A stretch of 64,000 bases of DNA. Source: Escherichia virus TH57. The stretch's first letter is position 1, and each line of letters begins with the position of its first letter. Below the pieces are notes generated by a model. That model searched no databases, had not been told where the DNA came from, and saw only the letters and a program-made list of their open reading frames with translations. Below, in pieces: positions 26,067-55,947 of this stretch. Where the stretch lies: sequence record MT446422.1. The stretch is one strand, 5' to 3'. The translations under genes were made by a program, and so were the position numbers.

Positions 26067-26585
26067 ATGGCTCATTTTAATGAATGTTCACAACTGATTG
26101 CTGGTGTTGACAAAGCTGAAGAAGCTTATGACAATGCAATTATCGAAGGCACTGACCCGCTGCAGATTATGCTTGATATGCAGAAATCATTGCAGGTCCG
26201 TTTGGCTACTGAAAAACCAGAATACAACTCACATCCAGACGAATTGGCTACCGCCGGCGATGTTGTTGCATGGCTTCGTAACCAGAAAGATTATGTTGAT
26301 GATGAATTCCGTGAACTTCTAACTTCTCTCGGTGGTATGTCTAATGGCGAGAAAGCTGCATCTAGTGTATGGAAGCCTTGGAAAGCCCAACATGCTGAAT
26401 TCCGTAATCGTCGTATTGATGAGTTGTCTCCTGAAGACCAGCTCGAAATTAAATTTGAGATGATTGACATCCTGCACTTTGTTCTGAACATGTTCCATGG
26501 TCTTGGCCTGTCGGCAGAAGAAATCTTTAAATTGTATTACCTGAAAAATGCTGAAAACTTTGCTCGTCAAGACCGAGGTTATTAA
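26067..26585 (+). CDS. 56: gp56-like dCTP/dUTP pyrophosphatase (MazG-like all-alpha NTP pyrophosphatase)
   Basis: 172 aa from ATG 26067; acidic metal-binding helices (DDEFRELL, EIKFEMIDILHF); position between 61 and soc as in T4. Confidence 0.6.
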   Translation: MAHFNECSQLIAGVDKAEEAYDNAIIEGTDPLQIMLDMQKSLQVRLATEKPEYNSHPDELATAGDVVAWLRNQKDYVDDEFRELLTSLGGMSNGEKAASSVWKPWKAQHAEFRNRRIDELSPEDQLEIKFEMIDILHFVLNMFHGLGLSAEEIFKLYYLKNAENFARQDRGY

Positions 26586-26866
26586 TGGCTCGTTTAAATA
26601 AACGACAGCTTAAGAAAGCTCGTAAGAAGCATATTAATGATATAATTGAAAACGCTAATGTTGAAATCTTTGTAGAACTTTTAGCCAATCAACTAAAAAA
26701 TTTATCTAAACAAGAAATTGCTATGAATACTGAAAATGCTAAAAATGTAATCGAAACTCATAATGTTTTTGCCCAAGCTACTGCTGAATACATTGCTAAT
26801 CCTACTGCTGAAAATCTAGCTAAAATGACCGAAGCCAATAAAGCAGTCCAAGCCGCCAAATTGTAA
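26585..26866 (+). CDS. hypothetical protein (93 aa)
   Basis: ORF; basic N-terminus, helical. Confidence 0.45.
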   Translation: MARLNKRQLKKARKKHINDIIENANVEIFVELLANQLKNLSKQEIAMNTENAKNVIETHNVFAQATAEYIANPTAENLAKMTEANKAVQAAKL

Positions 26867-31163: not shown

Positions 31164-31463
31164 GTGATGTACTACGCATATGTGCTGGTCCACAAAGATA
31201 AAGATGGTTTTGAACACCCATTGGAGTATGATGGAAAGGTGACCTTATACACCACAAAAGCTGGCGCAGATTATGAACTTGCCAACTATTCATATACTAC
31301 AAACCGCTATTTACGCATGGGACGTATTGAAACACGGTATATTCCCAGGAAGTGGTGGTTTGATAAGCGTGAAACAAAAACTGTTTTTCCTACTGAAGAA
31401 CGCGCACGAGAATTGAAATTAGTTTTAGATACTTTATATGTTAAGCGAGTAAAATTGGCATGA
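31164..31463 (+). CDS. hypothetical protein (99 aa)
   Basis: ORF immediately upstream of dda. Confidence 0.4.
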   Translation: MMYYAYVLVHKDKDGFEHPLEYDGKVTLYTTKAGADYELANYSYTTNRYLRMGRIETRYIPRKWWFDKRETKTVFPTEERARELKLVLDTLYVKRVKLA

Positions 31464-32788
31464 TTAAATTTGAAGACTTGAACACAGGACAAAAAGAAGC
31501 TTTTGATTATATCACTGAAGCTATTCAGCGACGTTCAGGGGAATGTATCACTCTGAATGGCCCAGCTGGCACAGGTAAGACCACTCTGACAAAATTTGTC
31601 ATTGACCACTTAGTGCGTAATGGAGTTATGGGAATTGTGCTCGCTGCACCAACTCACCAGGCGAAAAAAGTTTTATCTAAATTGTCTGGTCAAACAGCGA
31701 ATACAATCCATAGTATCCTGAAGATTAACCCGACCACATATGAAGACCAAAACGTTTTTGAACAGCGCGAAATGCCTGACATGTCAAAATGTAATGTTCT
31801 GGTTTGTGATGAAGCAAGTATGTATGACGGGTCTCTGTTTAAGATTATTCTTAACTCTGTTCCCGAATGGTGTACTATTCTTGGGATTGGTGATATGCAC
31901 CAGCTGCAGCCAGTTGACCCAGGAAGCACACAACAAAAGATAAGCCCATTCTTTACGCATCCTAAGTTCAAACAGATTCATCTGACTGAGGTCATGCGAA
32001 GTAATGCTCCTATCATTGAAGTGGCGACAGAAATTCGCAATGGTGGTTGGTTCCGTGACTGCATGTATGAAGGCCATGGCGTGCAAGGTTTCACCTCACA
32101 AACCGCTTTAAAGGATTTCATGATAAACTATTTCAGTATTGTAAAAGATGCTGATATGTTGATGGAAAACAGGATGTATGCATACACGAATAAATCAGTT
32201 GAAAAACTGAACAATATTATTCGTCGCAAGCTATATGAAACGGACAAAGCATTTTTACCGTATGAAGTCCTGGTTATGCAAGAGCCACACATGAAAGAGC
32301 TGGAATTTGAAGGTAAGAAATTCAGCGAAATTATTTTTAACAATGGTCAGTTAGTTCGCATCAAGGATTGCAAATACACTTCCACCATTCTCCGCTGTAA
32401 AGGCGAATCGCACCAGTTAGTGATTAATTACTGGGACCTGGAAGTTGAGTCAATTGATGAAGATGAAGAATATCAGGTTGACCGCATTAAAGTTTTACCA
32501 GAAGACCAGCAACCAAAATTCCAGGCATATCTGGCGAAAGTTGCTGACACATACAAACAGATGAAAGCCGCTGGTAAACGTCCAGAGTGGAAAGACTTCT
32601 GGAAAGCGCGCAGGACCTTCTTGAAAGTTCGTGCTCTTCCGGTCAGTACAATCCATAAGGCACAGGGCGTTTCAGTGGACAAAGCATTCATCTATACTCC
32701 ATGCATCCATATGGCCGAAGCTTCATTAGCGAGCCAGTTGGCTTATGTAGGAATCACACGAGCGAGGTACGACGCATATTATGTATAA
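31460..32788 (+). CDS. dda: DNA helicase Dda (SF1B)
   Basis: 442 aa; Walker A GPAGTGKTT; matches recalled T4 Dda. Confidence 0.92.
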   Translation: MIKFEDLNTGQKEAFDYITEAIQRRSGECITLNGPAGTGKTTLTKFVIDHLVRNGVMGIVLAAPTHQAKKVLSKLSGQTANTIHSILKINPTTYEDQNVFEQREMPDMSKCNVLVCDEASMYDGSLFKIILNSVPEWCTILGIGDMHQLQPVDPGSTQQKISPFFTHPKFKQIHLTEVMRSNAPIIEVATEIRNGGWFRDCMYEGHGVQGFTSQTALKDFMINYFSIVKDADMLMENRMYAYTNKSVEKLNNIIRRKLYETDKAFLPYEVLVMQEPHMKELEFEGKKFSEIIFNNGQLVRIKDCKYTSTILRCKGESHQLVINYWDLEVESIDEDEEYQVDRIKVLPEDQQPKFQAYLAKVADTYKQMKAAGKRPEWKDFWKARRTFLKVRALPVSTIHKAQGVSVDKAFIYTPCIHMAEASLASQLAYVGITRARYDAYYV

Positions 32789-33026
32789 GGTACATAAAGA
32801 AGATTTAGATAATCTTATCTATGGTATTCAGGACGCGGTTGAATTTTTCGAAGATAATCCAACTATCGTCGTGCAGGGTAATTACGTTTTGCTGGAACTG
32901 AATCTTATTCGGAAACGTATGGCCGCGATTGAATATTTTAACAATGAAGAGCCAGGGATTTTTATCTCCGACTATGTTGCTGGTGAAATTCAGAAATTAA
33001 AAGAGATGTGCGATGGTTGCTGGTGA
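32781..33026 (+). CDS. hypothetical protein (81 aa); C-terminus altered by the 40-bp tandem duplication
   Basis: Ends ...KLKEMCDGCW inside copy 2 of the duplication; copy 2 alone would encode ...KLKEMCDD overlapping the dexA start. Confidence 0.45.
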   Translation: MYKVHKEDLDNLIYGIQDAVEFFEDNPTIVVQGNYVLLELNLIRKRMAAIEYFNNEEPGIFISDYVAGEIQKLKEMCDGCW

Positions 33027-33055
33027 AATTCAAAAATTAAAAGAGATGTGCGATG
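32976..33055 (+). repeat. tandem direct duplication, 2 x 40 bp, at the dexA start
   Basis: GTTGCTGGTGAAATTCA(G/A)AAATTAAAAGAGATGTGCGATG repeated head to tail with one mismatch; copy 2 contains the dexA ATG. Confidence 0.8.
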
Positions 33056-33736
33056 ATTGATGCTATTATTGACTTTGAAACTCTAGGAAACGGCTCGAAG
33101 GGAGCCGTTATTGACCTGGCTCTGATTACATTCGAATCTGACCCTGCTATTGTGGAATCATTCGAAACTCTGGTTAATCGCGGCAAACGTATTAAGTTCA
33201 GCCTCGAATACCAAAAAGGTAAGCGGTTGTTCGACACAACAACCATGGGTTGGTGGAAAAAACAATCACCAGAAGCTCGTGTTAACCTGACTCCTTCTGC
33301 GCATGATGTTGATACTCTGACCGGTATCCAACAGGCGATTGACTATCTGAATGGCAATGGAATTAACAAATACGAAAGCCTTATGTGGTGCCGTGGAATG
33401 TCTTTTGACTTCCCGTTGTTTGTCGACCTTATCCGCGACCTACAGCGCAATGAGGGGATTCCTGAGCGTGAATTGAATACCTACGGTCTGGAGCCGGTTG
33501 TATTCTGGAATCAGCGAGATATCAGGACAGCCATCGAAGCCTTATCACTCGTCCGTAAGATGTGTGAAACCCCATTACCGAAAGGGACTTTAGATGGATT
33601 TGTGGCGCACGATTCGGTACATGACTGCGCGAAAGATATTTTGATGTTGAAGTACGCCCAACGCTATGCTCTTGGTTTGGATGAAGTTCCTTCCGAAGAA
33701 GATGCAGACCCGTTATCTTTACCGAAAAAACGATAA
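33053..33736 (+). CDS. dexA: exonuclease A DexA (DnaQ-like)
   Basis: 227 aa; exonuclease motif IDFETLG near N-terminus. Confidence 0.85.
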   Translation: MIDAIIDFETLGNGSKGAVIDLALITFESDPAIVESFETLVNRGKRIKFSLEYQKGKRLFDTTTMGWWKKQSPEARVNLTPSAHDVDTLTGIQQAIDYLNGNGINKYESLMWCRGMSFDFPLFVDLIRDLQRNEGIPERELNTYGLEPVVFWNQRDIRTAIEALSLVRKMCETPLPKGTLDGFVAHDSVHDCAKDILMLKYAQRYALGLDEVPSEEDADPLSLPKKR

Positions 33737-52358: not shown

Positions 52359-52389
52359 ATTCAAAAGGGGCCGAAGCCCCCTCTCCTTA
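52358..52389 (-). promoter_or_regulatory. gene 38 translation initiation region with SD and AUG separated by a hairpin
   Basis: Minus strand reads TAAGGAGAG, GGGGCTTCGGCCCC hairpin, UUUUGAAU, AUG; SD-to-AUG spacing about 22 nt. Confidence 0.55.
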
Positions 52390-55300
52390 TGCTAAACGAA
52401 CGATATAGTTAAAAGCAATGTTTTTAACCGTGTTTTCTGTATTACCTGTACTATTTACAGTGATAGTATGACCGTGCGAACCAATTGCTACCGAGTGGGT
52501 ATGAGCACCAATACCTACAGTATGTGTATGGGCACCAATACCTACAGTATGCGCGTGGTTACCTGTGGTACTTGTGGTTCCTGACCAAGAGTGGGTATGA
52601 GCACCATCATTTGATGTTTTACCAATAGAGCTACTAATACCGATAACACTGGTTGAATTAAATCCAGTCATACCAGACGAGGCAGATACTGAATTAACAC
52701 CGTCTGGAAATAACCCGTTTGGATTATTTCCACTCGAATATCTAGGACCTGAACGAGCGTGCTGGTGAGCACCGGCTGAACTGGTAGTACCACTTACTGT
52801 ATGGTTATGGTTGCCAGTAGTATTACTGGTTTTAGTACCATAGTCAAAACTTGAAGAGGTCTTAGTGCCATAATCAAAGCTTGATGTAGTTTTAGTACCT
52901 AAATCAGTATTAGATGCTGAAGCACTATGGTTATGAGCCTTAACACCATCAGCTTCGGCACTCAACACCGCACGTCCACTTGGTTTACCTTTAATAGTCT
53001 GCCCGCGCATATCCGGAATAGTACCTGTAGGATATGCAACAGCAAGCTTAGGATAAGCACCTGTATCAAAGGTCTGACCTTCCATCAAAGCAAATCCAGC
53101 AGGAACTGAATCACTTGGCCACGGAATCGGAGCGCCAACAGGATAAGGTATCTGAGCATCGGAGTACATCATATACACTTGTCCACGCAGATGACCGGTA
53201 GGTAATTCTGTCACAGGTGTTTGATATCCACCATTAAGTCCAATTACCGAAATATAACGGGTATTTTCCGTGGCGTCATATTCAACTATAAGTTTGTCTG
53301 CATAAGTCCCGGCATACAGATAAACATCATAATCATCACCGGAGGTATTAATTGTTGCTATATTAGTAAATCCATTACCCGTGCGCCCCCATAAGGTAGC
53401 GTTAATACCTTTAGGATTGTCATTACTGGTACGAAGAACTACTTCAGTAATTGTAGCCTGTTCCGGTGAATTTACATTGTATCCATTACCACCTATAATC
53501 TTAAATTGAGCAGTTGATACCGACTGTGGCATAGTTACAGTAGCAAATTTATACCAACCTGCAGTTGAACTACCAGACCAAGTGCCAACATTAACTTTAC
53601 GGTCTAAAGTAGTGTTCAGGTTTTTAAAGTTTTCTAATGCAGTGCTGCCTGTAATATTACCGTCAGGACCAATACGAACATCGGAACCAATTTTAAGTGC
53701 CTTGGTTATATCAACAGTATCAGAGTTTAATGCAATACCATGGGAGTAGGTATAGTTATGTAAACGAACAACGTTGCCGCCGTCGCCGATACCGAGATAC
53801 CATTTTGTAACATCTGCTTTACGACCCTGGATAAAGTTGGATGACGCCTGAGAAGAAGCATTTACCACAATGGCGTCGGAATCCATATTAACACGCAATC
53901 TACAGTCGGTCTGAACAAATTTACTTACGTTGTCTACTGTAAAAAGTGGACCGCCTGTAGAAGTTTTATTACCCATTATAACCGTGCCATTAGCCAAATT
54001 AATGGAAAGCGGGCGAAGGTCGCTTATTCCACCGTTTTCACCGGCATTCTGAAGAGTAGGAATAAGATGGAATGAAGCAGAAGAACCTGTTTCTGAACGA
54101 CGGAAAATCATACCATATTCAGCGTTCCAAATTCTTAATGCATCTGCGGTACCGCCCATTTTAACTTGGCCGTTAATTGAGGCCCCACCTTGGACAAACA
54201 AACCGTTAGACATAGTAACATTGCCACCAAAAGAACCCTTACCTGAAGCGGTAATATCACCAAGACCAACGATATGACCTGTTTCAACAGTTCCATTAAA
54301 CTTAAAGTTGACAGGGCCAACACCATCTGCAACGGCAGGGTTTGTACGTTGGGCATAAAAATAATAACCTTGTGAATCTGAAACTTCCCATACTGTTTCA
54401 CGATTACCTTTTTCGGCGTTAAATGAGTTACCCCATGCCTTAATTGTAACTGTATTTTTGTTCTGGCCATTTCGGGTACCAGCGTCCCAGTTAATTGTTT
54501 TAGTACCATCTACACCGGAAGGAGCTTTAAATGATAATGCATTGGTATTGTCATCACCGTTTAAAAATAAACCAGTACGCATAGAAATGCGATTGGTAGA
54601 GTCAAATGTACCATCTGCTCTAATAGCAACTCTATTGGACCCGGTTTTAACATCTAAAATACCTGGCTCAACAAGAAGCCCGTCGCCCATACTAACAGAC
54701 ATACGACCTTGGCCACGGAAATAGTGATACATCTTTGCATTGCTGCTATAACCGATATGAGTCTGACCATCACCATTATTATTACCGTCGACATCAGTGC
54801 GCGCGGTAAACATTGCCTGATTGCTATTAGGGAAATCCCATGTAGTACCAGAATCACGGCTATAACCAACCATCAATTTCTTAGTGCTGTTAATACCGTT
54901 GTTCAAAACGGTAGCAGATGAAATACCGTTGGCCATCAGGTCATAAACGCCATCACGAACCCATTTAATACCGGTGTCATTATCACCAATTGCAATACCG
55001 ATAGAAATGGCAGAATCTAAAGGATAGCGTCCATTTGTACCATTATCCGGAAGACCTACAGAAATTGATTTACCCGCAGTAATACGTCCGGAGTTATCAA
55101 ACGCCCATTGGAAAGATGAAGGACCCACACCAGTCCACCAAGAAATTTCTTGTGGTTTACCTTTGCGACAATCAGCAATTTCATGGAAAATACTTGATGC
55201 ACTTGATGCACGCAATTTACGCAAATAGTTTAAACCATTAGTAGTATCATCAGAACCATCGGCAGGCGGGTTATAAACCCAAGTAGGTAAAGAAACCCAG

Positions 55301-55947
55301 TCGTATCCTATATTTGCATTAGCTACAAATGATTTTGTACTGAAATTAATATTTTTGGTAACAATTTCAGGACCGGTGATAATACCATTAGCCGAATTTA
55401 TGTTGCCTGATGCAGAAATATTACCTGCTGATACCATTAAACTACCGGTATCAACTTGAAAATTACCATTACGATTAAAGGTCCAATATTTTGAATCACC
55501 AGCTTCATTAATATAGTGGAATTTAAAACTACCTTCCGAAACTAATGTGCCTGCTGAAAATGTTCCATCTTTAAAGCGTTGTTTAATCAGTGGGTTGTAT
55601 TCTGAAGTAGATGCAGCCGCACTTAAATCAGCAAAAATAGGAGCTTTGGCACTGTGCTGGCCTGCCCAAGAGCCACTACCTGTCGTACGATAGTTAAATT
55701 CTATATAACCACCAGAGGCAACAATTTCAGGACCGTTTAAATTCAGGGTCCCGTTAATAGTTACATTTCCATCAACCTGTCCACCCTTTGCAAAGCCTAA
55801 ATCAATAATCTGTCCTTGGTCTGACTTAGTAAAAATGGTACGGTCACGCAAGTTAATAGCCAGTTCACCTTCATCTAACTGGGCTGCAGTAGGCTTGGCT
55901 CCTGCTATTTTACTTCTTTTAAATTGTATCGATTTTAAAGTAGCCAT
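52387..55947 (-). CDS. 37: long tail fibre distal subunit gp37
   Basis: 1186 aa; C-terminal HxH repeats (GNHNH, GAHQH, GAHTH x3, GSHGH) and terminal NYIVRLA as recalled for T4 gp37. Confidence 0.9.

Follow-up and report, generated by a model that had tools for sequence, protein, structure and literature searches.

The start codon of dexA in Escherichia virus TH57 lies within a head-to-tail duplication of 40 bp that also occurs in related phages. This duplication is an inherited allele segregating in Gaprivervirus, a genus of T4-like phages of E. coli, Shigella and Yersinia, and we consider it probable that the allele had a single old origin, spread by recombination, is occasionally lost by collapse of the array and is close to neutral.

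The 40-bp array and the genes around it

The window is the 64,000-nucleotide stretch of the TH57 genome (record MT446422.1) that was analysed as a whole. The array and the genes that it touches are as follows.

31460..32788, + strand: dda helicase, with Dda SH3 and AAA_30 domains; first in the overlapping chain dda > DexA.2-like ORF > dexA
32781..33026, + strand: DexA.2-like small ORF of 81 aa (phrog_5263; precomputed PF26837, Phage_T4_Y00H_G)
32976..33015, + strand: copy 1 of the 40-bp unit, with the CAG allele at unit positions 16-18 and TGC at 34-36
33016..33055, + strand: copy 2 of the 40-bp unit, with the CAA allele (A at 33033)
33053..33736, + strand: dexA, exonuclease A (PF16473; phrog_255, 'exonuclease')

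Direct reading and a degenerate pattern search both placed the 40-mer GTTGCTGGTGAAATTCA(G/A)AAATTAAAAGAGATGTGCGATG at two sites on the + strand, 32976-33015 and 33016-33055. The two copies are contiguous, with no spacer, and are identical at 39 of 40 positions; the only mismatch between them in the window is at unit position 18 (G32993 in copy 1, A33033 in copy 2). The locus reads ...GACTAT [GTTGCTGGTGAAATTCAGAAATTAAAAGAGATGTGCGATG] [GTTGCTGGTGAAATTCAAAAATTAAAAGAGATGTGCGATG] ATTGATGC..., in which the two 40-mers are bracketed. The degenerate pattern matched exactly two sites in the window and none in 100 dinucleotide-preserving shuffles, and the array had the highest Tandem Repeats Finder score of the 28 rows reported for the window (154; the runner-up scored 88). 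The array is a tandem duplication whose adjacent copies are more alike than chance allows, and the initial annotation of a near-perfect 40-bp duplication over the dexA start codon, with one mismatch, was accurate. Copy 1 encodes the final residues of the upstream ORF and ends in a copied dexA start, the ATG at 33013-33015. Copy 2 holds the stop codon of the upstream ORF (33024-33026), an SD-like AAGAG (33041-33045) and the real dexA ATG (33053-33055).

The 81-aa ORF matched phrog_5263 from end to end (E=2.9e-32; residues 1-78 on profile positions 1-76 of 77) and is a full-length member of the family of DexA.2/DexA.1-type small T4 proteins (phrog_5263, PF26837). The PF26837 assignment is the precomputed annotation of an identical protein; a search of the local Pfam copy gave no match for this ORF, whereas PHROGs and the precomputed Pfam annotation did. 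Several GenBank records label it 'similar to T4 DexA.2'. The dda stop and the start of this ORF overlap by 8 nt as ATGTATAA (32781-32788), and the geometry is that of the overlap between the ORF and dexA in one-copy relatives, ATGATTGA. These paired 8-nt overlaps suggest a translationally coupled chain, dda > ORF > dexA, which the duplication would interrupt.

GenBank records differ in where they start the DexA.2-like ORF, giving either 79 or 81 aa or, when the chosen start lies 36 nt earlier and within dda, 91 or 93 aa. The upstream start is used in L003, L007, L010 and L019 (locus positions 1546-1821/1827), and the other loci begin at 1582. The annotated start of the ORF that follows dexA varies as well, between locus positions 2517 and 2565.

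Further tandem repeats occur in the window. Two arrays, at 52480-52551 and 52828-52906 (27 bp x 2.7 and 30 bp x 2.6), are both in frame and lie within a gene on the - strand (52387-55947) for a 1185-aa gp37-like long tail fibre with Collar and gp37_trimer domains; repeats of this sort in a receptor-binding fibre may have a bearing on host range. A 24-bp x 1.9 repeat at 26778-26823 (Tandem Repeats Finder score 64), overlapped by rows of shorter period, sits in a 93-aa ORF on the + strand (26585-26866) that had no Pfam match.

Distribution and diversity of the duplication

A megablast search returned 33 phage records, 27 of them non-redundant and all of them Gaprivervirus or unclassified close relatives, and the locus was read in all 27. 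The closest to the window over 25 kb was Escherichia virus TH54, of the genus Gaprivervirus (97.5% identity). Some members of the group were recovered as low-temperature phages. The duplication is present in nine of these relatives (TH54, MN01, TH22, TH55, UPEC07, ECML-359, TH41, VR20 and UPEC01), isolates from the USA, Bangladesh, Uganda and Lithuania; exactly one unit is present in the other 18. Since presence and absence vary among otherwise collinear relatives, the duplication is an indel polymorphism. VR20 and UPEC01 were each matched in '2 places in record'; these are probably offset alignments of copy 1 of the window to copy 2 of the relative, because the exact run of 35 bases exceeds the 28-base word size.

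Two copies were also found in DNA from five sources outside the GenBank phage records. One, the 53,732-bp Logan contig SRR11772948_46, contains both copies and has no differences from the window over 3246 compared bases, a stretch over which every other relative compared has at least 116. SRR11772948 therefore very probably represents the raw data of the window's own phage, so that an independent assembler has reproduced the duplication, and it could be used for read-level checks of the array. The remaining four (Logan SRR29999943 and ENA ERZ28618124, ERZ27274741 and ERZ27235397) are further independent carrier assemblies, each with 118-132 differences from the window over the 3246 positions. 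The metagenome carriers were found through an exact protein match, which biases the haplotypes that could appear among them. The junction, GATG/GTTG, is identical in all carriers, that is, in the nine relatives and these four assemblies.

At the protein level, the exact 81-aa sequence of the window is on record on at least 24 contigs, and ...DGCW is also the C-terminus of an uncultured 'MAG TPA Caudoviricetes' protein, DAH51000.1. When IMG/VR was scanned with the duplication junction and with the one-copy junction, the only matches were VR20, VR25 and VR26, all already among the relatives, and a scan of JGI metagenomes for the duplication junction gave no match. Sensitive blastn beyond the 33 Gaprivervirus records aligned only the coding part of dexA, and provided no outgroup for the unit at the DNA level.

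One record among the relatives, DCP80 (PQ671644.1), probably contains a misassembly or a rearrangement. Its length is just 140,978 bp, and the ORF downstream of dexA is followed immediately by 'terminase large subunit' and 'tail sheath' genes, a place that motB.1/motB genes occupy in every one of its relatives; DCP80 also forms a long branch of the downstream tree.

The arrays were scored at unit positions 5, 9, 18 and 36, and five haplotypes were found, with zero to three differences between copies (copy 1 and copy 2 are separated by a slash).

CTGC/CTAC (type A): the window and nine other sources
CTGC/CTGT: VR20 and UPEC01
CTGT/TTAC: ERZ28618124
CCGC/TTGC: ERZ27274741
CTGT/CTGT: ERZ27235397

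Variants at unit positions 9 and 36 segregate in one-copy phages too (GGC in PSD2001, SP18, P479 and RZ; TGT in PSD2001 and DK-13). Only one or two copies were present among 32 sequences, and a three-copy allele was seen in none of the 14 carriers. The duplication is thus inherited and diverse and is not private to TH57: the G/A mismatch of the window is common to eight isolates and one run assembly, and the haplotypes stand on differing flanks.

These data bear on the view that the duplication is an artefact of assembly or sequencing, or a very recent event in this phage stock. The copies in the window are separated by a single mismatch, and short tandem repeats can in principle be misassembled. 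However, the same structure occurs in nine other isolates from at least five independent studies on three continents and in four independent metagenome or run assemblies, and SRR11772948 agrees with the window exactly. Moreover, because type A with its G/A mismatch is common to eight isolates, the mismatch predates this stock, and at 80 bp the array is below the length of a normal sequencing read. We reject an assembly artefact, the array having been reproduced in SRR11772948 and 13 other sources, and regard this whole account as scarcely credible. The initial annotation had considered a stock or assembly oddity, and had called the duplication recent and unusual in a phage genome. The comparison with close relatives that it proposed confirmed the structure and overturned the rest: the duplication is found in about a third of related Gaprivervirus phages, and its spread over four countries and five haplotypes with one junction argues against recency and private status.

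Consequences for the upstream ORF and for dexA

In the two-copy allele the ORF leaves copy 1, enters copy 2 in another frame and terminates as ...KLKEMCDGCW at the stop codon 33024-33026. Removal of one copy in silico gave a 79-aa product ending in ...KLKEMCDD, with its TGA overlapping the dexA ATG as ATGATTGA, and exactly this arrangement is present in 18 of 18 one-copy relatives. Translation and relatives thus bear out the initial reading, namely that 40 is not a multiple of 3 and that the ORF ends differently in copy 2. The change in the protein is confined to its extreme C-terminus, where the last Asp is replaced by Gly-Cys-Trp. The coding sequence of dexA and the 40 nt upstream of it are untouched, and the SD-like AAGAG of the native leader ends 7 nt before the ATG at 33053. 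As had also been noted, the ribosome binding site and start context of dexA are duplicated, SD-like AAGAG and ATG being present in both copies. Two further features appear in the two-copy allele.

33027..33052, + strand: intercistronic spacer of 26 nt, in the two-copy allele only; one-copy phages have an 8-nt gene overlap instead
33013..33060, + strand: potential mini-ORF of 15 codons, MVAGEIQKLKEMCDD and a stop, created by the duplication and predicted from sequence

The candidate mini-ORF has an SD-like AAGAG in copy 1 (33001-33005), its ATG at 33013 and a TGA stop at 33058-33060 that overlaps the dexA ATG as ATGATTGA, like the ORF stop in one-copy phages. In sequence it has what a leader coupled to dexA would have, namely an SD-like element, a start, an open frame and an overlapping stop, and it could restore the original stop/start overlap with dexA.

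The SD and start of dexA were predicted to be unpaired with a probability of 0.32 in the two-copy allele and of 0.30-0.34 in reconstructed one-copy alleles. RNA structure that sequesters the dexA start was ruled out, as the hairpin predicted in the minimum-free-energy fold (-5.2 kcal/mol) was no better than shuffled sequence (z=-0.27) and accessibility was equal in both alleles. No sigma-70-like promoter and no intrinsic terminator were found in the 40-bp unit, and, as regards T4 middle and late promoter motifs, inspection by eye showed neither a MotA box (TGCTT) nor TATAAATA.

The second copy could nevertheless matter to dexA through RegA, whose gene is encoded in the window.

14573-14941, + strand: regA translational repressor (PF01818, E=4e-61)

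This gene lies just upstream of a 904-aa ORF of the size of a DNA polymerase, as in T4. In T4, dexA is among the mRNAs repressed by RegA, whose operators are A/U-rich and include AUG (PMC3014915). The dexA leader of the window resembles T4-type RegA operators in its A-rich start region with AUGs, which the duplication doubles, in that T4 dexA is a target and in the presence of regA in the genome. The leader differs from the T4 dexA operator; the likeness is one of composition and gene presence, and the RegA site is a candidate only.

An adaptive reading would draw on these features. The two-copy allele would be a regulatory variant under selection that alters the dosage or timing of DexA by uncoupling translation of dexA from the upstream gene, by adding the 15-codon leader ORF and by doubling an A-rich start region that RegA could bind. 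The allele is frequent (about one-third of isolates) and geographically widespread although tandem repeats are expected to be unstable, and the duplication creates an SD and ATG whose mini-ORF ends on the dexA start. Against this, dexA retains its native leader, which is predicted to be equally accessible in the two alleles, and the hairpin that might have required coupling is indistinguishable from shuffled sequence. Variant sites are too few for a selection test on the mini-ORF, in which one of the three copy-2 variants changes an amino acid (Ala to Val). We therefore consider an adaptive regulatory role quite unlikely. That selection maintains the two-copy allele as a dexA regulatory variant, with balancing selection or host or temperature niches keeping both alleles, is a decidedly weak prospect. 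If the regulatory reading were true, the locus would offer a modest natural experiment on how dexA is controlled by translational coupling and by RegA.

Origin, spread and meaning of the allele

One copy is taken as the ancestral state, because the divergent clade of VR7, VR25, VR26, TH15 and TH40 has one copy in five of five members and because the phrog_5263 profile (77 positions) ends where the 79-aa form ends. In neighbour-joining trees of the 1.5-kb flanks the carriers are interspersed with one-copy phages and are not monophyletic. Within 400 bp on either side, the two-copy phages TH22, TH55 and UPEC07 equal the one-copy phage EAWsc9 at every variable site, and two-copy ECML-359 and one-copy YenM_P8 and pEC-M719 differ from these four at one to three sites. 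The 'A' allele, otherwise confined to copy 2, is found in just one one-copy genome, pEC-M719, and of the one-copy phages this one is closest to TH22, TH55, UPEC07 and ECML-359. pEC-M719 looks like a collapsed array, produced by a crossover upstream of position 18.

Homology between the two boundaries of the unit is limited to an offset match of five in seven bases (GTTGCTG and ATTGATG). Simple replication slippage on microhomology does not account for the junction: slippage at TTG predicts A at the junction and slippage at ATG predicts an in-frame duplication of 39 bp, and the observed unit is 40 bp with G. Exact look-up found neither predicted protein (...MCDDCW and the in-frame 39-bp product) on the common backbone in the protein collection, a negative that carries little weight. 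That all 14 carriers have one and the same odd junction speaks for identity by descent, with one origin followed by homologous recombination, a process that is very active in T4-type phages. We propose that one old illegitimate event of copying or joining, non-homologous or poorly homologous, would have made the duplication in a one-copy ancestor, that the allele then would have moved to many backgrounds through homologous recombination between co-infecting phages, and that it would occasionally be lost when the two copies collapse into one. Near-neutrality may account for its persistence, as the segment spans a gene boundary and leaves the body of the upstream gene and the dexA leader both whole.

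Alternatively, the site could be a hotspot at which the same 40-bp duplication formed repeatedly and independently, carriers being alike by recurrence and not by descent. The scatter of carriers over the flank trees is as such recurrence would have it, all four combinations of duplication state and a C/T SNP 4 bp upstream occur, and the weak offset homology flanks the unit. In ERZ27235397 the two copies are identical, both of the DK-13 type, and the sequence upstream is DK-13-like; it looks like a fresh duplication, although conversion between copies or a cycle of expansion and contraction would leave the same array. This carrier is a point against a single origin. Yet every carrier has the one junction that neither simple slippage model predicts, neither slippage product was found in the exact look-up, and none of the 14 carriers has three copies. 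Moreover, type A with its specific mismatch occurs on different flanks in nine sources, so that descent with recombination is needed in any case. Recurrence is for these reasons unlikely. A further point against the account proposed here is that a perfect or near-perfect direct repeat of 40 bp is expected to be unstable in a highly recombinogenic T4-type phage, and the frequency of about one-third could reflect selection.

Short tandem duplications and deletions between direct repeats are spontaneous mutations of T4, known from rII and lysozyme spectra and arising by slipped mispairing and illegitimate recombination. Like them, the dexA array consists of tens of bases repeated head to tail, shifts the frame of the affected gene and can revert by loss of a copy. 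It differs in spanning a gene boundary with no knock-out and in being fixed in natural lineages rather than a laboratory mutant; unlike slippage-type duplications, its junction lacks clean microhomology. In comparison with coupled overlapping phage genes, of the ATGA type or longer, one-copy relatives have 8-nt overlaps at both dda/ORF and ORF/dexA, and the two-copy allele could recreate the second through the candidate mini-ORF. The main upstream ORF of the window, unlike such genes, stops 26 nt before dexA, and coupling is proposed from the layout of the sequence. As at VNTR and phase-variable loci, copy number is polymorphic between strains, with evidence for gain and loss; in contrast to them, the array has only two states and its unit is far longer than typical phase-variation repeats. 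A phase-variable contingency locus was ruled out, as the upstream ORF (79 or 81 aa) and dexA are whole whichever state is present. The dexA array is an ordinary length polymorphism of the short tandem-duplication kind. Literature searches on Gaprivervirus, on dexA with translational coupling and on tandem duplication in T4-like phages turned up no account of this locus; its sequences and the annotation of the 81-aa ORF have been public since the deposition of VR20.

The importance of the polymorphism extends little beyond housekeeping. The duplication is not an error and should not be 'corrected' in assembly, and the 81-aa and 79-aa DexA.2-like proteins are allelic forms. Because the alleles differ by 40 bp, Gaprivervirus isolates could be typed at this locus by the length of a PCR product, a simple marker that could also track recombination or repeat collapse in mixed infections. 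For the biology of these phages, it is a clean natural example of how a duplication over a gene boundary can persist since both genes remain whole.
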